A stretch of DNA of 64,000 bases, taken from positions 161-64,160 of the forward strand of contig DASTLR010000003.1 of assembly GCA_035714745.1 (NCBI GenBank), given 5' to 3'. Positions 5,797 to 61,208 of this stretch are shown here, piece by piece; within the stretch, counting starts at the first letter, position 1; the number at the start of each line of letters is the position of its first letter. Below the pieces are notes generated by a model. The model saw only the letters and a program-made list of their open reading frames with translations. It searched no databases and was not told the origin of the DNA. The translations under genes were made by a program, and so were the position numbers. Source of the stretch: Minisyncoccota bacterium. Its GTDB lineage: Bacteria; Patescibacteriota; Minisyncoccia; Phycocordibacterales; UBA6065.

Positions 5797-5815
5797 TGTC
5801 TTAAAAAATAAGACA
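5797..5815. promoter_or_regulatory. Operator-like palindrome 1 (TGTCTTA-N5-TAAGACA)
   Basis: Perfect 7-bp inverted-repeat arms with an AAAAA spacer, 67-85 nt upstream of the HTH ORF at 5882. Confidence 0.55.
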
Positions 5816-5838
5816 GTCGTCTGGACTATCAAGACTTC

Positions 5839-5857
5839 TGTCTTAAAAATTAAGACA
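5839..5857. promoter_or_regulatory. Operator-like palindrome 2 (TGTCTTA-N5-TAAGACA)
   Basis: A second copy of the same inverted repeat, centred 42 bp (about 4 helical turns) from palindrome 1 and 25 nt upstream of the HTH ORF. Confidence 0.55.
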
Positions 5858-8458: not shown

Positions 8459-9475
8459 ATGATCGTACCATCACAAAAACTCAATCCAAAGCTCTTCGAC
8501 AAGGATATCGAAGAGGTGCCGATCCGCAAGGGCTTCGGCCAGGGATTGCTCGCGGCGGGGGAGCGCGACCAGAGGGTCGTCGGACTCTGCGCCGACCTCA
8601 CTGAGTCGACGCAGATGCACCTCTTCAGGGAGAAATTCCCTGAGAGGTTCGTCGAGATCGGCGTGGCCGAGCAGAACCTGGTGACGGTGGCCTCCGGCAT
8701 GGCGGCCATGGGCAAGATACCGTTCGTCAGCTCGTACGCCATGTTCTCTCCGGGCAGGAATTGGGAGCAGATCCGCACGACCATCGCCTATAACGGCCAG
8801 CCGGTCGTCATCGTCGGCTCGCACGCCGGCGTCTCCGTCGGCCCTGACGGCGGCACCCATCAGGCCACCGAGGATATCGCCCTCATGCGGTCTATGCCGA
8901 ACATGGTCGTGGTCTCGCCCTGCGACGCTATCGAGGCGAGAAAGGCCACGTTGGCCCTGGCAGAGCTGGCCCGAAAGGAGGGTAAGCCCTCCTATATGCG
9001 CCTTATACGCGATAAAACGCCCGTTATGACCACGGAAGCCACGCCGTTCGAGCTCGGCAAGGCCCGGGTCTTTTTCGAGCCTATAGCGGGTTCTCCCGAG
9101 GTCGCCATCATCGCCACCGGGGCCCTGGTGCACAAGGCTCTGACGGCTGCCCGCGAGCTCGAAAAGGAAAAGATAGGCGTCACGGTCCTGAACCTGGCCA
9201 CCATAAAGCCTCTCGACGAATCGGCCATCGTCCGCGCGGCCAAAGCCGCCGGGGCCGTCGTCACCGTCGAGGAGCACCAGGTCATGGGCGGCATGGGCTC
9301 GGCCGTGGCAGAGCTGCTGGCCGCCAAGCATCCGACGCCGATCGAATTCATCGGCGTCCAGGACCGCTTCGGCCAGTCGGGCACTCCCGAGGAGCTCGTC
9401 GAGCGCTACGGCATGGGGGTCAGGGATATCAAGGAGGCGGCGCTTCGGGTGTTAAAGAGAAAAAGGGAAAGATAG
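8459..9475 (+). CDS. tkt: Transketolase, C-terminal (pyrimidine-binding and C-terminal domain) subunit
   Basis: Contains FVEIGVAEQNLVTVASGMAAMGKIPFVSSYAMF and GSHAGVSVGPDGGTHQATEDIA. Length is 338 aa. Confidence 0.9.
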   Translation: MIVPSQKLNPKLFDKDIEEVPIRKGFGQGLLAAGERDQRVVGLCADLTESTQMHLFREKFPERFVEIGVAEQNLVTVASGMAAMGKIPFVSSYAMFSPGRNWEQIRTTIAYNGQPVVIVGSHAGVSVGPDGGTHQATEDIALMRSMPNMVVVSPCDAIEARKATLALAELARKEGKPSYMRLIRDKTPVMTTEATPFELGKARVFFEPIAGSPEVAIIATGALVHKALTAARELEKEKIGVTVLNLATIKPLDESAIVRAAKAAGAVVTVEEHQVMGGMGSAVAELLAAKHPTPIEFIGVQDRFGQSGTPEELVERYGMGVRDIKEAALRVLKRKRER

Positions 9476-9477
9476 AG

Positions 9478-9578
9478 AACGAAGATCACTCCGGACACTC
9501 AGAGCACAAAAGAACACCAGAAGGGGATTCCCTCTGGTGTTCTTTTGTGATCCCCGTGTTCCCTGGTGATCTTCGTTT
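9478..9578. repeat. Copy A of a ~100-nt nested-palindromic intergenic repeat. Its inner hairpin acts as a bidirectional intrinsic terminator between the convergent tkt and recR genes.
   Basis: The outer stem is AACGAAGATCAC paired with GTGATCTTCGTT. The inner stem is 14-17 bp: AAAAGAACACCAGAAGG paired with CCTCTGGTGTTCTTTT. A T-run follows on both strands. About 75 nt are near-identical to 16423-16493. Confidence 0.8.
9508..9546. terminator. Bidirectional rho-independent terminator (inner hairpin of repeat copy A)
   Basis: Perfect 14-bp stem, an 11-nt loop that can pair further, and TTTTGTG downstream on both strands. Confidence 0.8.
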
Positions 9579-9581
9579 CCC

Positions 9582-10217
9582 CTACAACACTGTTTCCTGC
9601 TTGCGGCTCATCAGGGCGTTCCTGATGGTCTCGGAGTCGGAGTATTCGAGCTCGGTGCCGGTAGAGAGGCCGCGGCCCAGGATGGTCACTTTCAGGCCAT
9701 GTATTTTTATGAGAGGCGCGATGTAGCCCTCGACGAACTCGCGGGTGTGCTCGCCCTCGCTGTTAAGCGACAGGGCGAGGATGATTTCCTTGAGGCCGTT
9801 CTTTGCGCGGCGCTCGATTGCCTGGACCAGCTCCCGGGTGCGGATCTTCGATTCAGGGTCCTTTTCCACGAGCGATAGGGAGTTGCCCAGGACGAAGTAA
9901 TAGCCTCCGTAGACCTTGCTCTTTTCGACGGCGTCCAGGTCGACGTCCTTGGCCACGATCATAAGCGACTCGCGGTCGCGGCCGGCGTCGCGGCAGACAG
10001 GGCAGAGGTCGCCCGAGGCAGGGGCCCTCTTTTCGAAATAGCGATAGCAGCCGGAACAGACCGTCACGCGGGCGGCCAGCTGGACGATCTCGTCAGCCAG
10101 GGAGGCACGGAAGCCGTCGTTGGCGCCCAGCAGGAAATAGACGAATCGCTTGGCCTGGCGAGGGCCGATGCCGGGGAATTGCTTAAAAAGGTCGTGGAGG
10201 CGGTTCAGGTGGTCCAT
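9582..10217 (-). CDS. recR: Recombination protein RecR
   Basis: The HhH motif is FPGIGPRQAKRF. A C4 zinc finger (CSGCYRY...CPVC) and a Toprim domain are present. Length is 211 aa. Confidence 0.9.
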   Translation of the reverse strand: MDHLNRLHDLFKQFPGIGPRQAKRFVYFLLGANDGFRASLADEIVQLAARVTVCSGCYRYFEKRAPASGDLCPVCRDAGRDRESLMIVAKDVDLDAVEKSKVYGGYYFVLGNSLSLVEKDPESKIRTRELVQAIERRAKNGLKEIILALSLNSEGEHTREFVEGYIAPLIKIHGLKVTILGRGLSTGTELEYSDSETIRNALMSRKQETVL

Positions 10218-10236
10218 GCGCCTATTGTATCAGAGG

Positions 10237-11619
10237 CTAGAAGCTGCCTTCGATGGCCGGGGCGAACTCGCCGAAGTCGGCCTTCTCGACGGAGAGGAAG
10301 GTGGACTTGTCGGCGTCGAAGACCAGCTGGACCTCGCCGGTCGGGCCGTTTCGGTGCTTCTCGATGAGGATGGTGGCCTCGCGGGAGCGGGCCTGCTCGC
10401 CGGATTCGTCCTTTTCGCGGTGGATGAACATGACCACGTCCGCGTCCTGCTCGATGGAACCGGAATCGCGCAGGTCCGAGAGACGGGGTTTGCCGCCGCG
10501 GGACTCCACGGCGCGGGACAGCTGGGAGAGGGCGATGACCGGCACGTCCAGGTCGCGGGCCAGGTTCTTGAGCGAGCGGGAGATCTCGGTGACCTGCTGG
10601 ACGACGTTGTCGGTCTTGATCGACTGGACCGGCGTCATGAGCTGGAGGTAGTCGACGATGACCAGGCCCAGGGACTTTTCGGCCTTCAGGCGGCGGGCGA
10701 TGGCGCGCATCTTCAAGATATTGTTGCCTGGCTGGTCGTCGATATAGATAGGGGCCTTGGAAAGCTTCTCCATGGCGTCGCGGATGCGGCTGAAGTCGTG
10801 CTCGATAGAGAGGTTCTTGCCGGTGCGGAGCTTCCAGGCGTCGACGCGGGCCTCGGCGGCCAGCATGCGGTCGACGAGCTGCTGCGAGGACATTTCCAGG
10901 GAGAAGATGCCGACAGGGATGTTGTGCTCGACGGCGGCCTTGCGTGCGATGTCGAGGGCCAGTGACGTCTTACCCATAGATGGGCGAGCGGCTAGGATGA
11001 TGAGGTCCGATTTCTGGAAGCCGGAGAGCTTGTTGTCCAGGGCCTTGAAGCCGGTCGGCACGCCGCGCAGCTCGTGCTGGGAGTTATGGAGGCGGTCCAG
11101 GCGCTCCCAGGCCTCGCCCAGGGTGTCCTTGAGGGCGATGAACTTGTGCGAGCCGACGGAATTGGTGACGTCGAAGAGGCGCTTCTCGGCGTTGTCGATG
11201 ATCTCCTCGAGCTCGCCCTGCTCCTGGAACGACATGGACGAGATGTGCTCGCCGGCCTCGATGAGGCGGCGCATCATGCTCTTCTTCTGGACGATGGTGG
11301 CGTAGTGGCGGACGTTCGAGGCCGAGGGCACCAGGGCGACCAGCTCCGAGAGGTAGGTGGCGCCGCCGACGCGCTCCAGTTCGCCGCGGTCCTTGAGCTT
11401 TGACGAGAGGGAGAGGAGGTCGATCGGCTCGGCCTTGCTCATGAGCTCGAGCATGGCGCGCCAGACGATGCGGTGCTTGTCGGAATAGAAATCCTCCTCT
11501 TTTACGACGTCGGTGATCTCGTGGATGGCCTCGGGACGGAGGCAGATCGAGCCCAGCAGGGCCTGCTCGGCCTCGAGGGACTGCGGCGGGATGCGGATGT
11601 GGTCTCCGGTCTTTCTCAT
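10237..11619 (-). CDS. dnaB: Replicative DNA helicase DnaB
   Basis: The N-terminal primase-interaction region is PPQSLEAEQALLGS. Walker A is ARPSMGKTSLAL. The RecA-like core is present. Length is 460 aa. Confidence 0.95.
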   Translation of the reverse strand: MRKTGDHIRIPPQSLEAEQALLGSICLRPEAIHEITDVVKEEDFYSDKHRIVWRAMLELMSKAEPIDLLSLSSKLKDRGELERVGGATYLSELVALVPSASNVRHYATIVQKKSMMRRLIEAGEHISSMSFQEQGELEEIIDNAEKRLFDVTNSVGSHKFIALKDTLGEAWERLDRLHNSQHELRGVPTGFKALDNKLSGFQKSDLIILAARPSMGKTSLALDIARKAAVEHNIPVGIFSLEMSSQQLVDRMLAAEARVDAWKLRTGKNLSIEHDFSRIRDAMEKLSKAPIYIDDQPGNNILKMRAIARRLKAEKSLGLVIVDYLQLMTPVQSIKTDNVVQQVTEISRSLKNLARDLDVPVIALSQLSRAVESRGGKPRLSDLRDSGSIEQDADVVMFIHREKDESGEQARSREATILIEKHRNGPTGEVQLVFDADKSTFLSVEKADFGEFAPAIEGSF

Positions 11620-11721
11620 GCGACTATTCTACCACCGCCGCCGGCGCGCGGCACTGGCGGAAACGCCGCGGATGCGGTAAAAAGCGTCAAAACAGGGTAC
11701 AAGCGGGGGATATGCTGTGGC

Positions 11722-12090
11722 TTACGGCTCGAAGGCCGGTAGCGTCAGCGCGTGCATGCGCGCCGTGGCTCTGCGAAGGTCCGAAGCCCAATAAGGCGCC
11801 TTCGTCGGCACCAGGCGCATGCGATTATCATAACGAAGGTTTCCTACTTGCTGGACGAGGCCTCGGTCATGCAGGTTCGCGAGGGCAGTTTTGATCCTGT
11901 GGCGCGGTTCTCTGAGCATCCTGGCAAGAGAGGCTGTCGAATGAGGTCCAGAGGCGGTGGCGAGGATAACCTTTCTCTCTGTTTTGTTCAAGCTGAGCAT
12001 GTCGAACAATGTCTCGATATTGTGCCGAGAGGCGCCCCGCAATGTGCCGCTTAGCAAGGACGACTCCTCTATCATTTCAATGTCGCTCAT
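11722..12090 (-). CDS. Small winged-helix transcription regulator (MarR/ArsR-like), hypothetical
   Basis: 122 aa. The HTH segment is STASLARMLREPRHRIKTALANLHDRGLVQQV. It lies between cysS and dnaB on the same strand. The upstream region is AT-rich with several short hairpins. Confidence 0.5.
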   Translation of the reverse strand: MSDIEMIEESSLLSGTLRGASRHNIETLFDMLSLNKTERKVILATASGPHSTASLARMLREPRHRIKTALANLHDRGLVQQVGNLRYDNRMRLVPTKAPYWASDLRRATARMHALTLPAFEP

Positions 12091-12268
12091 CAGCCAAGTG
12101 TACGCCCAGTCGCATCTTGAGTTCTATAGTCCTCTCGTGTCGAAAAAGAGCCTTTCGTCAAAATGGAGTTTCAAATGTCCATTTTAACGAAAGTCGTTTT
12201 TGCGAGACCGTCGAGGGCCCAATAGAATAAAAAGCTTACAAAAAATTCCGCAGATTCCTCGCCGCCTG

Positions 12269-13684
12269 CTACCTTTTGGTTATTTTTTGACCCTCCGGGG
12301 TGTCTTTGACGTCGTAGCCGAGAGCGGCGATCTGGTCGCGCAGATCGTCCGAGAGCTTCCAATTCTTGGCGTTGCGGGCCTCGGCGCGCGCGGCCGCCAG
12401 CTCCAAGATTTTTTCTGGTAAAGTATCGCCGTTCTTTTGGGCCGCGGGCAGCTCCTTTATCAATCCCAAGAGCCTATCAAGCTCTAAAAGCGTGGCTTTT
12501 TTATCCGCTGCCGACAGCGCTTCTGATTTGACGACCTCCCAAGCCATTGCGAGCGCCTTGGGCGTGTCGAGATCGTCTGCGACGTATGACAGCGCCTTCT
12601 GAAACAGCTCACCGTCAGCCGTGCCGCCGTCCGGTAGCTCGGTCACCGCGGCAACGTATCTATTGTAGGCCGTGGCGGCCGCCTCGAGCGCCTCCCAGGT
12701 GAAGTTGAGCGGCGTGGAATAGCGGGCGCCCAGCAGGTAGTAGCGATAGGCAAGCGGGTCGTAGCCCTTCTCCTTGAGCGAGCCAAGGGTGAGGAAATTT
12801 CCCTCGGATTTGGCCATCTTGCCGCCCTCTACGTTCAAAAAAGCCGAATGAAGCCAATACCTGACGAACTGGCGCCCTTCCGCCGCTTCTGACTGGGCAA
12901 TCTCGTTGTTGTGGTGGACGGGGATATGGTCGATGCCCCCGGTGTGTATGTCGACGGGCAGGCCCAGGAGCGCCTCGGACATGGCTGAGCACTCTATGTG
13001 CCAGCCCGGGAAGCCTTTGCCCCACGGCGAGTCCCACTCCATCTCGCGCCGCTCGCCGGCGGGGGAGAACTTCCAGAGGACGAAATCGGTGGCGTTCTTT
13101 TTTTCCTCGTTCACGCCGATGCGCTGGCCTTCGCGGATGCCTTTCAGGTCGATCTTCCCGAGCTTGCCGTATTCCGGGAATAGGGCCGTATCAAAGTATA
13201 TGCCGTCCGACGTCCGGTAAGCAAAGCCCTTCTTCTCGAGCTTCTTGACGATGGCGATCTGCTCGTCGATATAGTCTGTGGCGCGAGGGAACCGAGTGCC
13301 GTCCGTGTCGACGTTCAGGCCGCGTAGGTCTTCGAAGAAAGCCTCCGTATAGTGCCGGGCGATGTCCCAAGCGGATTTGCGCTCGCGACGGCGAGCCGTC
13401 TCCATCTTGTCCTCGCCGGTATCGGCGTCGCTCGTTAGGTGGCCGACGTCGGTGATGTTGATGACCTGGTGGACCCGGTATCCCGAGGCCTTCATCAGCC
13501 TCTTGAGGGTGTCGGCAAAGACGTAGGCGCGAAGGTTCCCGATATGGGCGAAGTTATAGACCGTCGGGCCGCAGTGGTACATGCCGACGCGCGGCTTGCC
13601 GATGAAGCCCAGGAAGCGTCCCAGGAGGGGCTTGAACTCCTCTTTGCGGCCGCTCAGGGTGTTGTGCAGGTAGATCGGTACCAT
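12269..13684 (-). CDS. cysS: Cysteinyl-tRNA synthetase
   Basis: The HIGH region is MYHCGPTVYNFAHIGNLRAY. The zinc-ligand region is HIECS. The KMSKS-type motif is KMAKSEGN. Confidence 0.95.
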   Translation of the reverse strand: MVPIYLHNTLSGRKEEFKPLLGRFLGFIGKPRVGMYHCGPTVYNFAHIGNLRAYVFADTLKRLMKASGYRVHQVINITDVGHLTSDADTGEDKMETARRRERKSAWDIARHYTEAFFEDLRGLNVDTDGTRFPRATDYIDEQIAIVKKLEKKGFAYRTSDGIYFDTALFPEYGKLGKIDLKGIREGQRIGVNEEKKNATDFVLWKFSPAGERREMEWDSPWGKGFPGWHIECSAMSEALLGLPVDIHTGGIDHIPVHHNNEIAQSEAAEGRQFVRYWLHSAFLNVEGGKMAKSEGNFLTLGSLKEKGYDPLAYRYYLLGARYSTPLNFTWEALEAAATAYNRYVAAVTELPDGGTADGELFQKALSYVADDLDTPKALAMAWEVVKSEALSAADKKATLLELDRLLGLIKELPAAQKNGDTLPEKILELAAARAEARNAKNWKLSDDLRDQIAALGYDVKDTPEGQKITKR

Positions 13685-13694
13685 AGGCGTCAGG

Positions 13695-14609
13695 CTAGAA
13701 CCATTTTCGGGCGCGCATGATGCCGGCGATGACCAGTCCCGTGGCGAGCATGATCAGGCCGGCCATCCAGAACTCGTGGGGCTTGCCATGGATAGGGCTG
13801 TCGGGCGACTCGATGAGGAACCACGAGGCCATGATGTTCACGAAGGACGAGACGATGGTCACGGCCGTAAAGGTCATCATGATCTTGTTCTGCTTGGTCT
13901 CCAGGAGGGAGTTGTTCGTCTCGCGCAGCTCGTGGAGCGACTCGTTCAGGCCCTGGACGGTCTTGTGGACCTTCATGTACTCGCCGATCAGGGCGTCGAT
14001 ATAATGGCCGTAATCGGCGCCGAAATGGCCCCTTGCGGCCTCCCTGAACGATTCCAGGACCTCCTGGTGGAGCGAGATGGCGTGCTTGAAGGCCAAGAGC
14101 TCGCGCGAGGTGTTCGAGATCTCGTAGACCATGTCGCGCTCGGCGCCGGCGAATATCTTCTTCTCGATCTCGTCCAGGCCGTCGCGCACCGCCTCCAGCT
14201 CGTCGCTGAGCGAGCGGTATACCTCGCGCATCAGGTAGTAGAAGGTGTATCCGGCGTTCTCGCCGAGGAGGCCGTTGTGGTCCAGGACGGCGTTGACCTC
14301 CATCATCTTTGAGAACTTGTGGAGGGGGTCGATGGTGTCGTAGCGAGCGGTGATGAGGAAGTCCTTGCCGACGATGACGTCCAGCTCTTGGGTAGTGTCC
14401 TTGTGCGAGTGCTTCCAGGCGGGGAGGTGGAGGATCAGGTAGACGAAGCCGTCATAGCGGTCGACCTTTGACCGGCTGGTGGGCAGGAGCAGCTCCTCGG
14501 CGGCCAGGGGGTGGAGGTCGTACTTCTCCATGAGCCCCCGGACCTCGTCCCTGGTCGGGCACTCCAGGTCTACCCACGCGACCTTCTTGTACGTATAGGT
14601 ATGTATCAT
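13695..14609 (-). CDS. CorA-family divalent-cation transporter homolog with an atypical pore motif (ASW in place of GMN)
   Basis: 304 aa. A soluble N-terminal domain is followed by two C-terminal TM helices and a KWF-type C-terminus. The segment NKIMMTFTAVTIVSSFVNIMASWF aligns to the CorA ...GIYGMNF segment. Confidence 0.55.
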   Translation of the reverse strand: MIHTYTYKKVAWVDLECPTRDEVRGLMEKYDLHPLAAEELLLPTSRSKVDRYDGFVYLILHLPAWKHSHKDTTQELDVIVGKDFLITARYDTIDPLHKFSKMMEVNAVLDHNGLLGENAGYTFYYLMREVYRSLSDELEAVRDGLDEIEKKIFAGAERDMVYEISNTSRELLAFKHAISLHQEVLESFREAARGHFGADYGHYIDALIGEYMKVHKTVQGLNESLHELRETNNSLLETKQNKIMMTFTAVTIVSSFVNIMASWFLIESPDSPIHGKPHEFWMAGLIMLATGLVIAGIMRARKWF

Positions 14610-14641
14610 GGGGATAATGATAGCATGATATAATCTCGCCT

Positions 14642-15904
14642 ATGCATCAATCGAACAAAGCCTCCGTCGCCGTCATCGCCCTGGCAGCCGTGGCGGTCTC
14701 TTTCGTCCTGGGCTTCCGGTCGGGCGCCACGTCGGCCGCCCAGCAGAGCTTGGCCGCGACCGTCGCCAACCAGGCGGCGGGCAAGCCCTCCTCTGTGGAC
14801 TTCGCGCCTTTTTGGAAGGCCTGGAACATCATCAACGAGAAATACGCGGGCACCAGCACGTCCGACCAGGACAAGGTCTACGGCGCCATCGAGGGCATGA
14901 CCGCCTCGCTCGGCGACCCGTATACCGTATTCTTCCCGCCGGCCGAGTCGAAGATGTTCGCCAGCGAGATCGCCGGCAACTTCGAGGGCGTGGGCATGGA
15001 GATCGGCATCAAGGACGGCCGCCTGGTCGTCGTCTCGCCGATCAAGGGCTCGCCGGCCGAGGCCGCGGGCGTCAAGGCGGGCGACGCCATAGCCAGGATC
15101 GACGAAACGGACGCGGCCGGCCTCTCGACCGACCAGGCCGTACAGCTGATCCGCGGCAAATCAGGGACGAAAGTCCGCCTGGGCCTGGCGCGCGACGGCA
15201 AGCCTTTTTCCGTGACCATCGTCCGGGCAAAGATCGACCTGCCGACCGTCCGCACGGCCGTCAAGCAGGAGGCGAGCTCAGCGGGCTCCACGACCGCCGA
15301 TTCCGGCACCGGCCTGCGCAAGGACGGCATCTTCGTCATATCCCTCTTCAGCTTCAGCGAGAATTCGGCCAACCTCTTCCGCGAGGCTCTGCGCGAGTTC
15401 GTCAAATCGGGCTCCCACAAGCTGGTCATCGACCTGCGCGGCAATCCAGGGGGCTATCTCGAGGCGGCGGTCGACATGGCCTCGTGGTTCCTGCCCGACG
15501 GCGCCATCGTGGTCCATGAATCCTTTGGCAAGGGCGTGCCCGAGCAGGTCTATCGCAGCAAGGGCTATAACATATTCACCGACAAGCTGAAGCTGGTCGT
15601 GCTCGTGGACGGCGGCTCGGCTTCGGCCTCCGAGATCCTGGCCGGAGCCCTCTCCGAGAATGGCCGGGCCATCCTGGTCGGCGCAAAGACCTTTGGCAAG
15701 GGGTCGGTCCAGGAGCTGGTCAACCTGACGCCGGACACCTCGCTCAAGGTCACCATCGCCAAGTGGCTGACGCCAAAGGGCAACTCCATCTCCAAGCAAG
15801 GCATCACCCCCGACTACATGGTGCCGATGACCGAGGCAGACGCCCGGGCGGAGCGCGATCCCCAGATGGACAAGGCCGTGGAATTGCTTTCAAAGCTGCC
15901 ATAG
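14642..15904 (+). CDS. ctpA: Carboxyl-terminal processing protease (peptidase S41) with PDZ domain
   Basis: It has an N-terminal TM/signal region, a PDZ domain (GDAIARIDETDAAGLSTDQAVQLIRGKSGTKV), and an S41 core (LVIDLRGNPGGYL, GGSASASEILAGAL, K in AKTFGKGS). Confidence 0.9.
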   Translation: MHQSNKASVAVIALAAVAVSFVLGFRSGATSAAQQSLAATVANQAAGKPSSVDFAPFWKAWNIINEKYAGTSTSDQDKVYGAIEGMTASLGDPYTVFFPPAESKMFASEIAGNFEGVGMEIGIKDGRLVVVSPIKGSPAEAAGVKAGDAIARIDETDAAGLSTDQAVQLIRGKSGTKVRLGLARDGKPFSVTIVRAKIDLPTVRTAVKQEASSAGSTTADSGTGLRKDGIFVISLFSFSENSANLFREALREFVKSGSHKLVIDLRGNPGGYLEAAVDMASWFLPDGAIVVHESFGKGVPEQVYRSKGYNIFTDKLKLVVLVDGGSASASEILAGALSENGRAILVGAKTFGKGSVQELVNLTPDTSLKVTIAKWLTPKGNSISKQGITPDYMVPMTEADARAERDPQMDKAVELLSKLP

Positions 15905-15937
15905 GCTAGTATCAAGACCTAACCAGATCGAACAACC

Positions 15938-16384
15938 ATGAAGATCGTATTGACCAAGGACGTGAAAGGAGTGGGAAAGAAGCACGACATCAAGACCGTA
16001 GCCGACGGATTCGCCTTGAACAGCCTGATCCCTCAGGGCTTGGCAGAGGTAGCCACCGCCGCGGCCCTGGCCCGCGTCGAGAAGGTCCGCAAGGCCGAAG
16101 AGGCCGAGAGGAAGGTCAAGGAGGACCTCCTGTCCAAGAACCTCAAGTCCATCCACGACGCCGTGGTCGAGGTGGCGGTCGGCGCCAACGAGAAAGGCCA
16201 CCTCTTCGCCGGCCTCCACGCCGCCGAGATCGCGCCCCTGGTCAAGGAGCAGACCCGCATCGACGTCCTGCCGGAATTCATCGTCCTCGAGAAGCCTATA
16301 AAGGAAGTAGGGGAGCACAAGATCGACGTCAAAGTCCAGGGCAAAAGCGCCACGTTCACGCTGAACGTCACGGCAAAGAAGTAG
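15938..16384 (+). CDS. rplI: 50S ribosomal protein L9
   Basis: The protein begins MKIVLTKDVKGVGKKHDIKTVADGFALNSLIPQGLA. Length is 148 aa. Confidence 0.9.
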   Translation: MKIVLTKDVKGVGKKHDIKTVADGFALNSLIPQGLAEVATAAALARVEKVRKAEEAERKVKEDLLSKNLKSIHDAVVEVAVGANEKGHLFAGLHAAEIAPLVKEQTRIDVLPEFIVLEKPIKEVGEHKIDVKVQGKSATFTLNVTAKK

Positions 16385-16399
16385 GGAAGAGACGAGAGA

Positions 16400-16493
16400 A
16401 CACGAAGATCACTAAAGAATACAAAAGAACACCAGAGGGGAATCTCCTCTGGTGTTCTTTTGTGATCCCCGTGTTCCCTGGTGATCTTCGTGT
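16400..16493. repeat. Copy B of the nested-palindromic intergenic repeat. Its inner hairpin is a bidirectional terminator between the convergent rplI and rpmA genes.
   Basis: The outer stem is ACACGAAGATCAC paired with GTGATCTTCGTGT, a compensatory change relative to copy A. The inner stem is AAAAGAACACCAGAGG paired with CCTCTGGTGTTCTTTT. The 3' ~75 nt are near-identical to copy A. Confidence 0.8.
16423..16461. terminator. Bidirectional rho-independent terminator (inner hairpin of repeat copy B)
   Basis: 15-16-bp stem followed by TTTTGTG. Confidence 0.8.
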
Positions 16494-16508
16494 CCTTCCG
16501 TATCCTCC

Positions 16509-16781
16509 TTACGCCACATTCACCACATTCTTCACCTTCGCCTTGCCGTTGAAGCCTATCTTTCGCTTGGTCGAGTTGCTGACGGTGCCCTCGGCGGTGG
16601 CGTAGATCGTGTAGTCCTTGCCCAGGGCCGTGTTCTTGCCTGGCAGGGTATTGAGGCCCTCCTGACGGACGATGATAGAGCCTACCTTGGCCCTTTCGCC
16701 GGCGTAGAGCTTGATGCCCAGGTATCGTGGGTTAGAATCTCGTCCGTTCTTCGTCGTTCCGGCTGATTTTTTTGTTGCCAT
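16509..16781 (-). CDS. rpmA: 50S ribosomal protein L27
   Basis: The protein begins MATKKSAGTTKNGRDSNPRYLGIKLYAGE...GSIIVRQEG. Length is 90 aa. Confidence 0.95.
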   Translation of the reverse strand: MATKKSAGTTKNGRDSNPRYLGIKLYAGERAKVGSIIVRQEGLNTLPGKNTALGKDYTIYATAEGTVSNSTKRKIGFNGKAKVKNVVNVA

Positions 16782-16912: not shown

Positions 16913-16941
16913 TTGACAAATATAATCAGGGGTGCTATAAT
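16913..16941 (+). promoter_or_regulatory. Consensus sigma70 promoter (TTGACA-N17-TATAAT) driving the transglycosylase gene
   Basis: Exact TTGACA at 16913-16918, a 17-nt spacer, and exact TATAAT at 16936-16941. The ATG follows at 16984. Confidence 0.7.
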
Positions 16942-18057: not shown

Positions 18058-19035
18058 CTACTTGCCGTCCCTGATGTCCTTGCCGCCATGGAATTTCTCG
18101 TGGATGTCGCGCAGGCGCTTGTTGGTGACGTGGGTGTAGACCTGGGTGGTCGAGACGTTCTTGTGGCCCAGGAGCTCCTGGACGCTGCGCAGGTCCGCGC
18201 CGCGGGAGAGGAGGTCGGTGGCATAGGTGTGGCGCAGGGTATGGGGCGTGACGCGCTTCGAGATGCCGGCCACCAGGGCGCAGCGCGAGATCATCAGCTG
18301 GATGTAGCGATTGGTCAGCCGGTTGTGGTCCGGATCCTTCGAACGATGGTTGATGAAGAGGGGCTTGGACATGTCCTTGCGCGCGGCCAGGTATCTGCGC
18401 ACCCATTCGGCGGCGTGAGGGGAGATGAAGATGGTGCGGATATGCTTGCCCTTGCCGACGATCGAGAGCTCGTAGGTGCGGTCCTTGGACTTGTCCCGGA
18501 GTATGGACATCTGGTCGGCGTTCAAGGCCGCCAATTCCGAGATGCGCATCCCCGAGGAAAAGAACAGCTCCATGATGGCCCGGTCGCGCAGGCCCGAGTC
18601 GGTCTTGGTATCCGGCACGTCGAGCATCTTCTGGATATCGGACACTTCCAGAAAGGAGATCGTCTCCTCGCTCTTCTGCTTGGCCAGCTTGATCTTTGAG
18701 GAGGGCAGGGACTCGATATCCCGGTCGGCTAGGAAGGCCAAGAGAGCCCGGAGGGCGATCAGGTAGTAGTTCTGGGACTTCTTGCTCAGGTATTCGCCGC
18801 CGGGGGTCTTGTACTCGCGGGCCATGTACAGGCGGTAGTCCCATATGTGCTCGGCGGTCAGCTCGTGCGGCTTCAGGCGCTCCTGGCCGGTCTCTTTGAG
18901 CCAGCGGACGAAGAGGGAGAGATACTGATTGTAATTCCTCTGCGTGTTGTTCGACAACCCTTTCTCGATCTCGCAGTAGTCCAGGAACGGCAGGACGTAG
19001 TCCTTGAGGGGAGTGGAGCTTTGCTTGGCTTTCAT
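18058..19035 (-). CDS. xerC: Tyrosine recombinase XerC/XerD
   Basis: An N-terminal SAM-like domain is present. The catalytic residues are ...R...HTLRHTYATDLLSRGADLRSVQELLGH...Y, and the C-terminal tyrosine is in TQVYTHV. Length is 325 aa. Confidence 0.9.
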   Translation of the reverse strand: MKAKQSSTPLKDYVLPFLDYCEIEKGLSNNTQRNYNQYLSLFVRWLKETGQERLKPHELTAEHIWDYRLYMAREYKTPGGEYLSKKSQNYYLIALRALLAFLADRDIESLPSSKIKLAKQKSEETISFLEVSDIQKMLDVPDTKTDSGLRDRAIMELFFSSGMRISELAALNADQMSILRDKSKDRTYELSIVGKGKHIRTIFISPHAAEWVRRYLAARKDMSKPLFINHRSKDPDHNRLTNRYIQLMISRCALVAGISKRVTPHTLRHTYATDLLSRGADLRSVQELLGHKNVSTTQVYTHVTNKRLRDIHEKFHGGKDIRDGK

Positions 19036-27425: not shown

Positions 27426-28730
27426 TTATGGGACGAGGCGTGTGGGACCGCGATACAGGTAGGTAACCTCACGGACATTCTTGCGATCCAGGAGGATCAT
27501 CAGAAGCCGCGTCAGGCCGAGGCCGAATCCGCCATGCGGAGGGCATCCGTAGCGGAAGAAGTCGATGTAGTGCTTGATCGACTCAAGGGGGATTCCCTTC
27601 TCGGCCGCTTGCGCCGACAGGACGTCGACGCGATGCTCGCGCTGGGCGCCGGTGGTCACTTCCAGGCCGTGCCAGAGGAGATCGAAGCTCTTGGTGAGCG
27701 TTGGGTCATCCTCATGGCGACGGTGATAGAAGGGTCGCACCTCGACTGGATAGTCCGTCACGAACACGAACTCGTGGCCAGTCTTCTCCTTGATGTATTC
27801 GGCGAGCATGCGCTCACCGGGTGGGTCGAGGTCTTCCTTGTGGGCGATCGCGTGGCCGCGCTCGGCCAGGATGGCCCGGGCTTCGGCGAGCGGGATACGC
27901 GGGAACGGCAGCATCGGAACGACGACGTCGATCCCGGTGAGCCGCTTTATCTCGTCTCCGCATTCCTTCTGGACGTAGCCGAGCGCGTAAGCGATCAGGC
28001 GCTCTTCGAGCGCCATCACGTCTTCGTGCGACTCGATCCAGGACATCTCCACGTCGACGGAGGTGAACTCCGTGTCGTGGCGGGCTGTGAACGAAGGATT
28101 AGCGCGGAAGACCGGGCCGATCTCGAAGATACGGTCGAGCCCTGCTGCCATCGCCATCTGCTTGTAGAACTGCGGCGATTGGGCGAGCGTGGCTTTGCCG
28201 CCGAAGTAGTCGAGCTGGAACAGCTCGGCCCCTGATTCGCTTGCCGTGCCCATGAGCTTCGGCGAGTGGATCTCCATGAAGCCGTTCTGCAGCCAGAACT
28301 GCCGCATCCCCTGCTCCAGAGCTGTCTGGACCTTGAAGATGAGGGTGTTCTCGGGACGGCGGATGCTAAGCGCCCGCCAGTCGAGCTGGAGGTCGAGACC
28401 GGATTCGGCTGTGATCGGGAGCAATTGCTCCGCGGGGCCGACATCCTCGATCGAATCGAGCACGATCTCCACGCCCCCGAGCTTAGCGCTCGGATTGGCG
28501 ACGACCTTGCCCGAGGCGATGATGGCGGATTCCTGCGTCAGCGCGCTGATAGCAGCGCCGAGCGGGTCTCCTTCCTTCTTCTCGTGGCAGAGCTGGATCA
28601 TGCCGGTATGGTCCCGGAGGACCACGAACTGCATGCGCTTCTGGTCGCGGATCGCGTGTGCGAAACCCGCAACTGTGACGATCGAGCCCGAGAGCGCTGA
28701 CACATCCCTGGTCAATGTTCGATTAATCAT
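27426..28730 (-). CDS. aspS: Aspartyl-tRNA synthetase, archaeal/short type (possibly non-discriminating)
   Basis: An N-terminal OB fold is followed by a class II core with motifs 1-3 (FRANPSFTARHDTEFT, QSPQFYKQ, FFRYGCPPHGGFGLGLTRL). The probable start is the ATG at 28730 (MINRTL...); the track ORF extends to 28805. Confidence 0.85.
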   Translation of the reverse strand: MINRTLTRDVSALSGSIVTVAGFAHAIRDQKRMQFVVLRDHTGMIQLCHEKKEGDPLGAAISALTQESAIIASGKVVANPSAKLGGVEIVLDSIEDVGPAEQLLPITAESGLDLQLDWRALSIRRPENTLIFKVQTALEQGMRQFWLQNGFMEIHSPKLMGTASESGAELFQLDYFGGKATLAQSPQFYKQMAMAAGLDRIFEIGPVFRANPSFTARHDTEFTSVDVEMSWIESHEDVMALEERLIAYALGYVQKECGDEIKRLTGIDVVVPMLPFPRIPLAEARAILAERGHAIAHKEDLDPPGERMLAEYIKEKTGHEFVFVTDYPVEVRPFYHRRHEDDPTLTKSFDLLWHGLEVTTGAQREHRVDVLSAQAAEKGIPLESIKHYIDFFRYGCPPHGGFGLGLTRLLMILLDRKNVREVTYLYRGPTRLVP

Positions 28731-28749: not shown

Positions 28750-30069
28750 TTACGGCGAGATTTTACGCCGGAAAATGCGTGGGAACGGAATGGCGTCGCG
28801 CACATGCGGGATGTTGAGCATCCAGCGGATCATGCGTTCGACCCCCATGCCGAAAGCCGCGTGAGGAACGCAGCCGAGTTGGTGGACGTCACGGACGAAT
28901 TCGAAGCGCGGATCACCATGCTTGCCCTTATCCTTGAGCCGCTCGTCGAGTTCGCGGAGTTGATGGATTTTCTCGGCGGTGCCGAGGAGCTCGCCGTAGC
29001 CATTGCTCGCGATCAGGTCGGCGACGCGAGTGATTCGCGTGTCGGCCGGATCGATGCAATACGGGAACGGTTCGATAGTCCGGGGTATCCCAGTGATCCA
29101 GAACGGGCGACCAGGAAAGAGCTTGGAGAGCAAGGTTTCCTCTTCGGAGCCGAGGCTCTTGCCAAACTCATGTTGCATGCCGAGCGACGAAAGGTGCTTG
29201 ACCGCCTCTTCGTAGCTGATGCGGGGATATGGAACGGACATGCCGTCGGTGCAGAGCGTCGTGCCGAGCACCTGGAGCTCTTCCGAGAGCTCCTTCTGGC
29301 ATTTCTTGGTGAGGAAACAGATGATGTCCTCAACCATCTTGATGATGCAGTCGAGGTCGCACCAAGCCACCTCGGCCTTGATATGCCAGTATTCCATGAG
29401 GTGCCGTTTGCTGCGGCCCTCTTCCCCGCGGAAGCTCGGTCCCATATTGTAGACGCGCTCGAAGGCGTGGACCGCCGCTTCGAGGTAGTATCCGACGCAT
29501 TGCGTCAAGAATACATCCTCGTCATGGACGGTCAGCTTCATGGCCGTGCCGTCTTCGTAGAGCGGCACCGGCGTGAGTATCGGCGCGTCGATCGATGTGA
29601 ACCGGTTGTCTCGGAACCACTGCCGCATGTGATGCATCAGGCTGTCCCGATATTTCAAGATGGCCATTACCTTCGGGTTGCGGAGGTAGATATGGCGGTT
29701 GGCGAGCAGATGGGGCGTCATGCCTTCTGCGAAGATGTCGAAGTCGGAGCGCGGGTGCGGATCGAATCCGCGGGTGACCCCGCCGACGAGCGTGATGTCA
29801 TGCGCGGCGATTTCGAGGCGGCCTTTAGGCGTCCTCGAAACGACTCCTTTGACGACGATGCCTGATTCGACAGGGATATCCCTGGCGATCTCAGACGCTC
29901 CGTTCGAGCCATGCTCGGCGGAGACGACGACTTGGATCTTGCCCGTGCTGTCGGACACATCCAAGAACGTGATGCGGCCCTGGTCCCGCTTGGAGGAGAC
30001 CCAGCCTGACAAGTCGACCTGGTCTCCGGGTTGAGCCCGGAGGAGGTCGGCTACGAATACAGTCTTCAT
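28750..30069 (-). CDS. asnS: Asparaginyl-tRNA synthetase
   Basis: Class II motifs are MGPSFRGEEGRSKRHLMEYWHIKAEVAW and GCVPHAAFGMGVERMIRW. An N-terminal OB fold is present. Length is 439 aa. Confidence 0.8.
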   Translation of the reverse strand: MKTVFVADLLRAQPGDQVDLSGWVSSKRDQGRITFLDVSDSTGKIQVVVSAEHGSNGASEIARDIPVESGIVVKGVVSRTPKGRLEIAAHDITLVGGVTRGFDPHPRSDFDIFAEGMTPHLLANRHIYLRNPKVMAILKYRDSLMHHMRQWFRDNRFTSIDAPILTPVPLYEDGTAMKLTVHDEDVFLTQCVGYYLEAAVHAFERVYNMGPSFRGEEGRSKRHLMEYWHIKAEVAWCDLDCIIKMVEDIICFLTKKCQKELSEELQVLGTTLCTDGMSVPYPRISYEEAVKHLSSLGMQHEFGKSLGSEEETLLSKLFPGRPFWITGIPRTIEPFPYCIDPADTRITRVADLIASNGYGELLGTAEKIHQLRELDERLKDKGKHGDPRFEFVRDVHQLGCVPHAAFGMGVERMIRWMLNIPHVRDAIPFPRIFRRKISP

Positions 30070-32370: not shown

Positions 32371-33768
32371 CTACGGCGTCAAACGCTTAACACCTCGATA
32401 AAGATACGTCACATCTCTCACGTTCGAGATGCCGAACACTTTCATTAGCATGCGTGTTGGGCCCGGAGCGAATCCTCCATGTGGGGGACAGCCGTACCTG
32501 AAGAAATCGATATAGGTCTTGAATGAAGCGAGGTTGAGACCTTGCTCCTCGATCTGTTTCGATAATCTCTCAACACGATGCTCCCTTTGGGCTCCGCTCG
32601 TTATCTCGACCCCATTCCATAGGAGGTCAAAGCTTTTGGTGATTGTCGGGTCCTTTTCATCTCGCATGCTGTAGAATGCTCTTACTTCAGTCGGGAAATC
32701 ATGGATAAATACGAATTCATGGCCGAATTTCTCTTTGACATACTCGCATATAGCCCGCTCTTCTTCTGGGCTCATGTCGCCGCCACGCTCATTCGGAATG
32801 CCTCTAGCGGCAAGTATTTTTTTTACTTCACGGATCGATATTCTTGGGAACGGAAGAGCGGGCACAGGCAAATCTCTGCCGTATATCTTAAGAATTTCGT
32901 CGCCGTGCTTTTTTTTGACGGCGGCTATCATCGCCGTCACCATTTTTTCTTCTTGATCCATTAGGTCATGATGTGACGATATATATGACATTTCGATATC
33001 ATACATAGTGAACTCGGTGTCATGTCGGGAAGTGAAAGAAGGATTCGCTCTGAATACAGGACCTACTTCGAAGACACGCTCGAATCCCGCCGCCATCGCC
33101 ATTTGCTTGTACAGCTGAGGAGATTGGGCGAGCTTGGCCGTCTCGTCGAAATATTTCACTTCGAACAGCTCGGCGCCTGACTCTGACGCAGTTGATATGA
33201 GCTTTGGCGAATGAATCTCTATGAAATCGTTTTCGATACAGTACGTTCTAAAGGCCTGCTCCATTGTCGTCCAGACCTTGAATATAAGAGCATTCTCAGG
33301 TTTACGGAGATCGATCCACCTCCAGTCAAGACGTATCTGCTGATCAGTTTCTTCGTTTCCCTTCTTTACGACTACGGGTATAGGCAGCTCTGGATCTGCG
33401 ACAGAGAGTATTTCGAGCCGCGTTATCTCTATCTCTACCCCTCCAGGGGCTTGATCGGCTTTTTTTGCCTTACCTGCGAGTGCGATGACGGATTCGAGCG
33501 AAAGCGTCTTTAATTTTTCGAACTCGGGATTGTCTTTAGTGGCGAGCGCTTGAACCGTGCCTGTTATATCGCGAAGCACTACGAAGATAATCTTGCTCTG
33601 TACTCGCAGGGCATGCACGAATCCCCTAACGACTATTTCTTCTCCCACATGGGCTGCGACTTCCTTGGCGTGGATCATATAATGATATTTGTATCGGAGA
33701 AATAAAAGACCCTCCGAACTCATAGGCTTGTAATGAATTCGCAGGGGCGATTTAGATCGCGGTGCCAC
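32371..33768 (-). CDS. Second aspartyl-tRNA synthetase paralog (archaeal type) encoded in low-GC DNA
   Basis: About 70% aa identity to the 27426..28730 protein across the core (for example HSPKLISTASESGAELFEVKYFDETAKLAQSPQLYKQMAMAAGFERVFEVGPVFRANPSFTSRHDTEFT). All three class II motifs are intact. GC is ~46% versus ~60% for the native copy. The start is uncertain (M1 at 33768, M16, or M31 at 33678). Confidence 0.85.
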   Translation of the reverse strand: MAPRSKSPLRIHYKPMSSEGLLFLRYKYHYMIHAKEVAAHVGEEIVVRGFVHALRVQSKIIFVVLRDITGTVQALATKDNPEFEKLKTLSLESVIALAGKAKKADQAPGGVEIEITRLEILSVADPELPIPVVVKKGNEETDQQIRLDWRWIDLRKPENALIFKVWTTMEQAFRTYCIENDFIEIHSPKLISTASESGAELFEVKYFDETAKLAQSPQLYKQMAMAAGFERVFEVGPVFRANPSFTSRHDTEFTMYDIEMSYISSHHDLMDQEEKMVTAMIAAVKKKHGDEILKIYGRDLPVPALPFPRISIREVKKILAARGIPNERGGDMSPEEERAICEYVKEKFGHEFVFIHDFPTEVRAFYSMRDEKDPTITKSFDLLWNGVEITSGAQREHRVERLSKQIEEQGLNLASFKTYIDFFRYGCPPHGGFAPGPTRMLMKVFGISNVRDVTYLYRGVKRLTP

Positions 33769-37185: not shown

Positions 37186-37842
37186 TTATTTGATCTCGAT
37201 CCAATTCCCTTCGCTGACGACCTCGACCTTTTCGTCTGCAACTTTGATGGCTGAAGCATCGTCGAGAGCGTACGTCTTTCGTCCGGTTCCCTCTACGGCT
37301 TTACGGATATTCTTCTCTCGCAACAGCGGGAACCATTTGGAATCGAGGTGAGGCAGCACATAAAAATCTACGAAACCAAGGCCCGGCATGTCTTCCTTTC
37401 GATCAAAGTCTTCTTCATAGACGATTTGAGATATCTTGAGCGACAGGTCGGGATTAGTGACCATGGTGCCCGCGCTGATGCCAGCATAGAGACGCGTCTC
37501 GAGCAATCGCGGCAATTCCGCGGCAAGGCCTGATTTATTCAACCATTCCATAAGGTGATAAGTATTGCCGCCGCCGACAAAGATCACGTCGGCCGCTTCC
37601 AATCGCGGCAGCCACTGCTTTTTCTCGAGCGCTGATATGTCTACGATATCGACAGACTTAAGGCCGAGCCTCTGTATCTGCGCCAGATTGTCGAGAAGCC
37701 ACCCTTTGTCGCCTGGCTCGACGTTCGCTGCCGTGGGTATGAAAGCAAGCGAAATCCGGCTCGCTTTCTTTCCTGCGAGCTCGAAAAAAGCCCCTTCTAT
37801 AGCCTTATTCGTTATTCCTGCCGATGTAAGAAGTAATTTCAT
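37186..37842 (-). CDS. Peptidase E (S51 family dipeptidase/cyanophycinase-like)
   Basis: The protein begins MKLLLTSAG and contains VGGGNT and the catalytic Ser region AGISAGT. Length is 218 aa. Confidence 0.75.
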   Translation of the reverse strand: MKLLLTSAGITNKAIEGAFFELAGKKASRISLAFIPTAANVEPGDKGWLLDNLAQIQRLGLKSVDIVDISALEKKQWLPRLEAADVIFVGGGNTYHLMEWLNKSGLAAELPRLLETRLYAGISAGTMVTNPDLSLKISQIVYEEDFDRKEDMPGLGFVDFYVLPHLDSKWFPLLREKNIRKAVEGTGRKTYALDDASAIKVADEKVEVVSEGNWIEIK

Positions 37843-52742: not shown

Positions 52743-53263
52743 AGCTCGATTTTCTCTTCTATGTAGTCGCAGTACATATCATATTGGATCTTGCCACTGG
52801 TGTACTTATTAATAAATCCGATATATTCAGGCAGATCCTTATAATATACAAAAATTCTTTGTTCTGTTTCGTTATCTTTAAGCGGTAAAAAATGATCAAG
52901 CGATCCAATTTTACACACGAATCTCACCTGTAGATTATGCTTCTGGATCTCCTCCTCAGCGCTAGGATTAATGACCTCCAATGACCCAAGCAGCTTAATG
53001 TCCTCAGGTATAAATTGGGCCTCCTCCATAAATTCCCTACGCAAAGTCTCAAGCGCGGTCTCTCCCTCCTCAGCCCCGCCTCCTGGAGGTGTAAATCTTT
53101 CGTCACCTTTTTCTCTAACAAGAGCCACTAGATTATCCTTAGTGTTACAAAAACCGTACACCTGCTGAACTGGAATATCCTTGGGAATGATTCCCGGATG
53201 CCAGATATAAGTGATCGTATAATTGCCCTTATCCTTTATTTCAGTGAGTTTATATTTTTCCAT
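52739..53263 (-). CDS. NUDIX hydrolase
   Basis: The Nudix box is PGGGAEEGETALETLRREFMEEAQ. Length is 174 aa. It overlaps the GT4 start by 4 nt. Confidence 0.8.
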   Translation of the reverse strand: MEKYKLTEIKDKGNYTITYIWHPGIIPKDIPVQQVYGFCNTKDNLVALVREKGDERFTPPGGGAEEGETALETLRREFMEEAQFIPEDIKLLGSLEVINPSAEEEIQKHNLQVRFVCKIGSLDHFLPLKDNETEQRIFVYYKDLPEYIGFINKYTSGKIQYDMYCDYIEEKIEL

Positions 53264-60890: not shown

Positions 60891-61208
60891 ATCAAGCTAA
60901 TATATGGTACTTTACCGATGAATTCAACCAAAGTAGATCTTTATGGAAACTAATGATACAGCGTCGAGCGATGTTACGAACGAACGGCTATATATTTTTA
61001 ATCTGGCCTTTGAAAGAGGCTTTATCTCGGGTTTGCTCGTCGGCATCCTTCTGATGCTCGTCGGGCTAGCCTTCAGACTGTAATGTTATTTCCATTTAAA
61101 GCAGACACCCTCTCCCCCACGACTTCTTGCGAGGTCACGGGAGATGGGCTGTCTGCTTTTTTCATTTTCTCTAAAATGGAGCTTTAAATCTCCATCTTGG
61201 AGAATCGA

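Follow-up and report, generated by a model that had tools for sequence, protein, structure and literature searches.

A nested palindromic repeat between two pairs of convergent genes on a Patescibacteria scaffold: a candidate two-way transcription terminator

Repetitive extragenic palindromes (REPs) number in the tens to hundreds per genome; they are tied to a RAYT gene, which encodes a Y1 transposase. REPINs are hairpins of about 100 nucleotides (nt) with internal bubbles, each arm of which is a self-palindromic REP. Miniature inverted-repeat transposable elements (MITEs) are characterized by defined terminal inverted repeats, a target-site duplication (TA in the case of Correia), many copies and a related autonomous insertion sequence (IS). 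REP/BIME sequences and the terminator-forming MITEs, i.e., Correia, ERIC and RUP, have been reviewed (PMC3184786). REPs are reported to be partial terminators and stabilisers of mRNA 3' ends, and in convergent gene pairs their presence is reported to go along with higher expression (bioRxiv 10.64898/2026.03.23.713779). In TIGR-Tas systems a tandem array of hairpins, whose units bear dual spacers and box C/D-like motifs, lies beside the gene of the Nop-domain protein Tas (PMC12045711). Here we analyse a nested hairpin of about 105-120 bases which is present twice in a stretch of 64,000 nt from a Minisyncoccota bacterium (contig DASTLR010000003.1; this whole stretch is called the window). Each copy is situated between convergent genes, copy A between tktC and recR, copy B between rplI and rpmA. 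With moderate confidence we consider the element to be a bidirectional intrinsic terminator inside a larger palindrome, ancestral at rplI-rpmA and copied to the second junction.

The window belongs to a metagenome scaffold of 85.9 kb (ERZ28572737, BAND20-1_SAMN13481442 scaffold_82). Altogether 73 kb of scaffold DNA were inspected, i.e., the window and 9.1 kb past its end. The genes in about 62 of these 73 kb (window positions 5938-26384 and 27805-64000, and the 9.1 kb past the end) were checked by Pfam lists. The source genome is presumably about 1 Mb in size, as is typical for Patescibacteria, of which about 7% was thus covered. The named organisms among the homologues of ribosomal protein L9 are Patescibacteria (Paceibacterota, Parcubacteria, Taylorbacteria).

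The element shares with the REP/BIME sequences of Enterobacteria and Pseudomonas that it is a short, intergenic, imperfect palindrome after stop codons, in those sequences often between convergent genes, and REPIN doublets are of similar size. In contrast to REPs and REPINs there is no RAYT gene among the checked genes of the scaffold, and sequence similarity is lacking; the copies seen so far number two, in about 7% of the assumed genome. Further, its arms are direct runs of 9-10-nt units and not self-complementary as in REPINs. The MITEs Correia/NEMIS from Neisseria, ERIC and RUP are comparable in length (about 100-150 bp), in their inverted termini and in their long hairpins. Such MITE-terminators likewise lie near gene ends, some supply stop codons or fuse to open reading frames (ORFs), and they affect transcript termination and stability. 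Unlike MITEs, the element has neither a target-site duplication nor a cognate transposase in the inspected DNA, and its termini covary between orthologues, whereas a shared transposase should fix them. With ordinary bidirectional terminators it has in common an A-tract, a GC-containing hairpin and a T-tract on both strands between convergent stops. Those are single-copy and mutually unrelated, whereas the element is about 100 nt long, has a second conserved stem, is present twice and possesses an invariant stem base. The element is REP- and MITE-like in behaviour and, as far as the inspected DNA shows, falls under neither definition.

The two copies and their flanking genes are organized as follows (positions in the window):

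8459-9475, plus strand: tktC, transketolase C-terminal subunit, the gene upstream of copy A
9473-9475, plus strand: stop codon TAG of tktC
9462-9590: copy A in its full covariance-model extent, filling the 106-nt gap from the tktC stop to the recR stop (9476-9581)
9478-9578: core of copy A, in the tktC/recR gap
9478-9489, plus strand: left arm of the copy A outer stem, AACGAAGATCAC, pairing with 9567-9578
9490-9504, plus strand: left internal units of copy A (TCCGGACAC, TCAGAGCAC), a spacer of ancestral type; the corresponding 8 nt are absent from copy B
9505-9549: inner hairpin of copy A, ACAAAAGAACACCAGA...TCTGGTGTTCTTTTGT, proposed bidirectional intrinsic terminator
9537-9571, plus strand: right arm of copy A with four GTGWTC, starting at 9537, 9547, 9556 and 9566
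9567-9578, plus strand: right arm of the copy A outer stem, GTGATCTTCGTT
9582-9584, minus strand: stop codon of recR
9582-10217, minus strand: recR, the convergent partner at copy A
15938-16384, plus strand: rplI (L9), the gene upstream of copy B
16382-16384, plus strand: stop codon TAG of rplI
16381-16512: full palindrome of copy B, from the rplI stop to the rpmA stop, filling the 124-nt gap (16385-16508)
16400-16493: core of copy B, in the rplI/rpmA gap
16400-16412, plus strand: left arm of the copy B outer stem, ACACGAAGATCAC, pairing with 16481-16493
16421-16463: inner hairpin of copy B, 21-nt arms, 95% complementary, proposed bidirectional intrinsic terminator
16452-16486, plus strand: right arm of copy B with four GTGWTC, starting at 16452, 16462, 16471 and 16481
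16481-16493, plus strand: right arm of the copy B outer stem, GTGATCTTCGTGT
16509-16511, minus strand: stop codon of rpmA
16509-16781, minus strand: rpmA (L27), the convergent partner at copy B

The copies are 6.9 kb apart and have the same orientation. From 9478 to 9578 copy A reads AACGAAGATCAC-TCCGGACACTCAGAGC-ACAAAAGAACACCAGA-AGGGGATTCCC-TCTGGTGTTCTTTTGT-GATCCCCGTGTTCCCTG-GTGATCTTCGTT; copy B follows the same plan, but its left spacer is 8 nt shorter. A BLAST comparison inside the window matched positions 9506-9576 to 16421-16491, a stretch of 71 nt with 94.4% identity (E about 4e-27). No difference exists between the left outer arms (9479-9490 in A, 16402-16413 in B), nor over at least the last 46 nt on the right side. 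The 29-mer GTGATCCCCGTGTTCCCTGGTGATCTTCG occurs exactly twice in the window (0 expected by chance). The 16-mer of the hairpin arm occurs four times, once in each arm of each copy, compared with about 0.25 expected; an additional match with three mismatches lies at 52794-52809. Neither a short-word BLAST nor a covariance model detected a third copy in the window. These data bear out the original prediction as to the coordinates of both copies, their near-identical shared sequence, their outer stems and the identity of the genes, transketolase C-terminal subunit/RecR and L9/L27, both pairs being convergent.

The inner hairpin is formed by 17 bp, a one-base bulge and 3 bp in copy A, and by 21 bp in copy B. 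Its folding energy amounts to -31 to -34 kcal/mol on either strand; that of the whole element is -61 to -69 kcal/mol with z between -8.5 and -10.4 against shuffles, again on both strands. A GC-containing stem of 12-14 bp, GAACACCAGAGG/CCTCTGGTGTTC, is placed between AAAA and TTTTG on both strands. T-runs on both strands, as claimed initially, are present, but they comprise only 4 nt and are paired with the A4 at the stem base instead of lying outside the stem. A generic terminator scan reports the hairpin of copy B on the minus strand. The outer arms are perfectly complementary over 12-13 bp in A and B, terminal inverted repeats being common to any nested hairpin. From stop to stop the copy B palindrome has 42-nt outer arms which are 76% complementary.

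Each arm is built from about five units of 9-10 nt with GWWCAC ends (GTGWTC on the right arm). In the right arm the GTGWTC hexamers are spaced by 10, 9 and 10 nt in both copies. At least three GTGWTC within 35 nt are found in the window only in the two elements. Window-wide the hexamer is not enriched, with 42 and 28 occurrences versus 32 expected per strand. Tandem Repeats Finder did not score the 9-10-nt arm units as an array; their regularity is visual and backed by the hexamer count. Two of the units pair perfectly with their counterparts in the opposite arm: the outermost clear one gives rise to the outer stem, the innermost one to the inner hairpin's base. The two middle units pair poorly and leave an internal bubble.

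Other long imperfect hairpins in the window are located at 12137-12208, 5797-5857 and 61098-61159 (29-31-nt arms, 76-81% complementary). Those at 12137-12208, before cysS, and at 61098-61159, after dnaK, are intergenic, and all three have no sequence relation to the element. In this genome gene ends thus seem to bear long hairpins quite generally.

The rplI neighbourhoods of nine relatives were obtained by an exact-protein look-up. Where contigs are long the gene order around rplI is conserved. Two of the relatives, L040 (Logan DRR673955) and L039, each have about 80% protein identity to the window and are relatives at the genus level. L040 carries a colinear homologue of the element at the orthologous rplI-rpmA gap (L040:10448-10552; 109 bits with the covariance model), which in alignable parts is about 76-84% identical to the window copies. 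According to the original prediction the existence of just these two copies, together with a lack of conservation in relatives, would have indicated a chance local duplication; L040 has kept the element. The left arm in L040 matches that of copy A with 84% over 37 nt, including the spacer absent from copy B. Since L040 shares this spacer with A, the left arm of copy A is the older form, and one unit was lost from copy B.

Seven relatives (L039, L041/42, L043, L044/45, L047, L050, L051/52) possess a hairpin consisting of A-tract, GC-hairpin and T-tract after rplI or before rpmA. In these ordinary terminators the stem is different each time; most are short, that of L047 is long, and several have a CTTTTG end like the element in the window. 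That seven relatives carry ordinary terminators at this position argues that the rplI-rpmA site requires a two-way terminator, and that a tract of four U followed by G is the local norm.

The rplI-rpmA gap of L047 contains a different hairpin of about 90 nt (L047:684-797). Its base, ATACAAAAG…CTTTTGTAT, is as in copy B, and the stem interior is unrelated; possibly this hairpin arose from the same element by remodelling. Contig L046 ends 18 nt past rplI (at 1306) in sequence which resembles the start of the L040 element; as a further carrier this is suggestive only. Logan contigs from three samples end at or inside a long hairpin after rplI, i.e., L032 (5893), L046 (1306) and L048 (1219). The contigs which end inside the element (L032, possibly L046) could be taken as a sign of high copy number. 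We rejected this, since L048 breaks at an unrelated, single-copy hairpin (L047/L048); probably the palindrome itself breaks these assemblies. In L043, downstream of rpmA, two DNA methyltransferase genes and a gene for a terminase-like GpA_ATPase are present (L043:5734-13226), which suggests an integrated phage-like segment next to the junction.

Pairs were counted in a three-sequence alignment of A, B and L040 with a structure which we specified ourselves. Paired cells amount to 94.5%, compared with 88.2% +/- 1.9 in shuffles, and none of 500 shuffles reached the observed pairing. When the partner was shifted by 1-3 columns pairing dropped to 41-51%. Four pairs are changed on both sides and are nevertheless still paired, all of them in the outer stem. 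One is the pair to which the original prediction had drawn attention when it described outer stems that differ and yet remain complementary. Between A and B exactly one pair differs on both sides (columns 21/120), with A-T in A and C-G in B. L040 has C-G as well, and because B and L040 agree, it is copy A that is derived at this pair. In the remaining three compensated pairs L040 differs from A and B together. The covariation argument as first put forward, one pair in two copies, was too thin; with L040 it extends to four doubly compensated pairs of the outer stem. In the inner hairpin no variation occurs among A, B and L040 in the basal 16 bp. At the apex L040 differs from the window and is still paired. 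The wobble cells favour neither strand, with six G·U on the plus strand and three C·A, equivalent to G·U on the minus strand. Taken as comparative evidence, these alignments make selection on structure likely.

A different picture emerges at the tktC/recR junction. In L040 tktC and recR overlap tail-to-tail by 29 nt without any intergenic DNA, and in L039 and L041 a histidine-kinase gene separates them. The RecR end is alike in the window, L039, L040 and L041. TktC ends with KRKRER* in the window, KRKK* in L039, QRKR* in L041 and KRKSLASY* in L040, where this tail overlaps recR. The sequence which contains the extra tktC codons of the window and the stop has its homologue in the left flank of copy B (AGGGAA.GA..GAGAAC). 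Because of the overlap in L040 and the match of the extra codons with the copy B flank, the module appears to have been copied into the tktC/recR junction and to supply now the end of tktC. As judged from these gene ends copy A is a secondary gain. A target-site duplication was not found: no direct repeat is formed by the sequences on the two sides of A (…GATAGAG / TCCCCTAC…) or of B (…GAGAGA / CCTTCCG…), which instead continue the palindrome. We also rejected the possibility that an integrated element is bounded by A and B as att-like ends, since the intervening 6.9 kb comprise recR, dnaB, cysS, corA, a protease gene and rplI, and relatives have these genes in the same order.

How might the element operate? 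The features of an intrinsic terminator, i.e., a hairpin with U-tract and upstream A-tract on both strands and a location in the gap between convergent stops, are present. From this anatomy, the exact position between the stops and the ordinary two-way terminators of the relatives we infer termination. With A4 before and TTTTG after the inner hairpin the same signal would be read on either strand. Transcripts of tktC or rplI arriving from the left and of recR or rpmA arriving from the right would be stopped at the inner hairpin. Such a two-way stop would spare each gene antisense transcription by the polymerase arriving from its convergent neighbour. The outer arms would close a second stem of 12-14 bp, which is possible only in read-through RNA or in DNA. 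This stem could act as a back-up clamp: read-through RNA would be caught in a hairpin of about -62 kcal/mol, and/or 3' exonucleases would be held up in the manner of E. coli REPs; a role as a clamp or 3' stabiliser is speculative. With regard to its history, the element would be ancestral at rplI-rpmA, and a later copy at tktC/recR would have given tktC a new end together with its stop codon; both this direction and the way of copying are matters of inference.

Several points weigh against this interpretation. The U-tract is short, just four U, and termination is deduced from anatomy and context. RNA released at the inner terminator would lack the 3' arm of the outer stem. Simple termination therefore leaves the conserved outer stem unexplained, and no U-tract follows the outer stem. 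The three sequences give weak statistics: four double changes appeared in 48 of 500 shuffles, and the covariation score was reached in 2 of 500. Finally, the 16 bp at the base of the inner stem do not vary between genomes whose proteins have diverged by about 20%, whereas ordinary terminators at this site differ completely from relative to relative. Such invariance points to a constraint on sequence as well as on structure, e.g., recognition by a protein or a recent spread. Because the core of the inner stem is invariant, a mobile family and a protein-binding array stay alive as rival explanations.

The question of mobility was approached by searches for further copies. The pattern AGAACACCAG-N9-17-CTGGTGTTCT revealed no further copy in 185,579 species-representative genomes, a collection which evidently contains neither the source genome nor L040. 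The 30 matches to this pattern came from unrelated phyla and were confined to the 10-15-nt stem arms, i.e., they are chance terminator hairpins. In the JGI metagenomes the 19-mer CTGGTGTTCTTTTGTGATC gave only three chance matches, a weak negative as the pattern would miss the L040 copy. Among viral contigs the 19-mer was not found and the hairpin pattern hit one unrelated simple terminator; blastn against phage and plasmid collections gave no match. A 252-aa concatenated peptide of the ORFs through the element, aimed at copies fused to gene ends or contig-edge ORFs, retrieved nothing at E <= 10 from 5.8 billion proteins. A covariance model of the three copies, run over the window and 13 loci (174 kb), returned just the three known copies and weak, structure-only matches (8.6-15 bits) to the terminators of relatives beside rplI/rpmA. 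No copy is present in the 9.1 kb of scaffold past the window, so the count in the inspected 73 kb is two, and the arm sequence CGAAGATCAC is found nowhere else in the inspected DNA.

With respect to mobility genes, no transposase domain was detected in the checked genes (precomputed Pfam lists and a scan of eight proteins), nor is there a RAYT (Y1 transposase) gene among them. The only recombinase seen is a tyrosine recombinase of the XerC/D type (18058-19035, minus strand) with a Phage_integrase and an N-terminal SAM-like domain. Its gene is 1.5 kb from copy B, between rpmA and an M23 peptidase gene; in L039 and L040 this place is occupied by other genes. Beyond the window, about 7-9 kb from its end, L049:1-413 and L049:2309-3715 encode two 468-aa proteins without known function. 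For the one at L049:1-413 the precomputed lists give a weak match to Transposase_20, which the readable C-terminal 136 residues did not reproduce, and a link to IS110 was dropped.

These results have to be weighed against the view that the element is an active, non-autonomous element of the MITE, REP or REPIN type. Its arms would then be terminal inverted repeats for a transposase encoded elsewhere, many more copies would exist, and termination would be a side effect. We regard this as unlikely. It would agree with the gain of copy A at a junction which lacks intergenic DNA in L040, with the identity of A and B over at least 46 nt, whereas the L040 orthologue remains at about 76-84%, and with the presence of the element in L040 and its absence from the equally close L039. 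Recent mobility would also result in an inner stem which is invariant among genus-level relatives while ordinary terminators turn over, and the inspected DNA is just the small fraction of the assumed genome given above. On the other hand, neither copy is flanked by a direct repeat, the checked genes include no transposase and merely the XerC/D-type recombinase, and both copies reside in one 7-kb neighbourhood. Likewise, no copy turned up in the other 20-kb loci of the relatives, in the representative genomes (hairpin pattern) or in the JGI metagenomes (19-mer). The compensated changes are not expected of terminal repeats in a static orthologous copy. Of the REP/MITE-like mobile terminator module originally proposed there remain a repeated, structured module at convergent ends, an inner hairpin with the anatomy and position of a bidirectional terminator, and relatives with ordinary terminators at this place. 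For mobility solely the gain of copy A speaks, set against the lack of a target-site duplication, of a convincing transposase and of further copies.

A combined version, which we consider distinctly improbable, envisages a mobile two-way terminator cassette of a small Patescibacteria clade. Its arms would be helically phased GTGWTC arrays for some DNA-binding or recombination protein, and it would spread without target-site duplication into convergent junctions, even replacing overlapping gene ends as at tktC/recR. Such a cassette would explain why the stem is invariant alongside a complete turnover of ordinary terminators.

The arms may also be viewed exclusively at the level of DNA, i.e., as an array of GTGWTC sites on one face of the helix, mirrored between the arms, for an oligomeric protein such as a recombinase or a nucleoid or partition protein. 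Palindromy would then reflect symmetric binding or cruciform extrusion. With four hexamers per right arm, two or three matching ones per left arm and a spacing of 9-10 bp, the layout is compatible with this proposal. The clustering of at least three hexamers per 35 nt exclusively in the two elements, against a background without overall enrichment, the same unit structure in L040, the invariant inner-stem sequence, and the nearby XerC/D-type gene in a segment variable among relatives all fit. We nevertheless give it little credence. No candidate binding protein was identified, the units went unscored by Tandem Repeats Finder, and the hexamers vary across copies and genomes (GATCAC, GAACAC, GAATAC, GATAAC, GAGCAC) while the pairing across the arms is kept. 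The strict position at convergent 3' ends and the plain terminators in relatives make transcription the simpler explanation.

We are equally reluctant to assume a functionless local duplication, in which an ordinary long rplI-rpmA terminator was copied over a distance of 6.9 kb by ectopic recombination or template switching and palindromy persists via hairpin copying or repair. Two known copies at this short distance in the same orientation, unrelated long intergenic hairpins elsewhere in the window (listed above) and the absence of any mobility hallmark would be in agreement with such an accident. Yet, the element is kept with compensated changes and an invariant core in L040, whose proteins are about 80% identical; at this distance intergenic DNA which evolves neutrally should no longer align. 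Further, both copies are situated where a terminator is expected, so that "functionless" is unlikely even if the copying was accidental.

Least of all do we expect a discrete small RNA or guide-type RNA family, e.g., a box C/D-like TIGR stem-loop unit which is independently transcribed and processed: the very stable fold and the conserved stems, and the reported occurrence of hairpin TIGR stem-loop arrays in Patescibacteria (PMC12045711), are outweighed by the lack of any promoter-like site beside either copy in a promoter/terminator scan and of a match to Rfam at gathering level (in E-value mode only eukaryotic miRNA-precursor hairpin models at 15-31 bits, below their thresholds of 55-211), results which also speak against the small RNA gene family considered in the original prediction. 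A TIGR stem-loop or box C/D identity was rejected, because by eye neither strand shows a UGAUGA (box C), a conserved CUGA (box D) is likewise missing, each copy stands singly instead of in a tandem array, and no Nop-domain protein is encoded among the checked genes of the scaffold.

The surroundings of the element contain a few other features of note. A perfect match to a sigma-70-type promoter (16913-16941, plus strand; TTGACA, 17 nt, TATAAT and an upstream TG; 12/12) lies just downstream of rpmA and is directed at the next plus-strand ORF. Two full-length histidyl-tRNA synthetase paralogues of 438 and 448 aa are encoded at 37805-39121 and 41275-42621, and three class-II tRNA synthetase paralogues of the Asp/Asn type (435, 439 and 434 aa) at 32371-33678, 28750-30069 and about 27805-28730, all on the minus strand. 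The presence of both sets within 15 kb is an unusual redundancy for a small Patescibacteria genome.

We return to the favoured interpretation, a bidirectional terminator inside a larger palindrome. The element would be small, restricted to one lineage and of a type familiar from the intergenic repeats of bacteria; palindromic repeats which terminate transcription or stabilise transcripts are well known in other phyla, and no new category is required. If this is true, even a very small and streamlined Patescibacteria genome recruits and copies a ready-made two-way terminator. At least once, the copying would have parted two genes which overlap tail-to-tail in a relative, and thereby rewritten the end of tktC, a gene of metabolism. 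The element is a compact natural part which should insulate convergent transcription in both directions, and it would provide a small test case for the notion that terminators arise through copying and not de novo alone.

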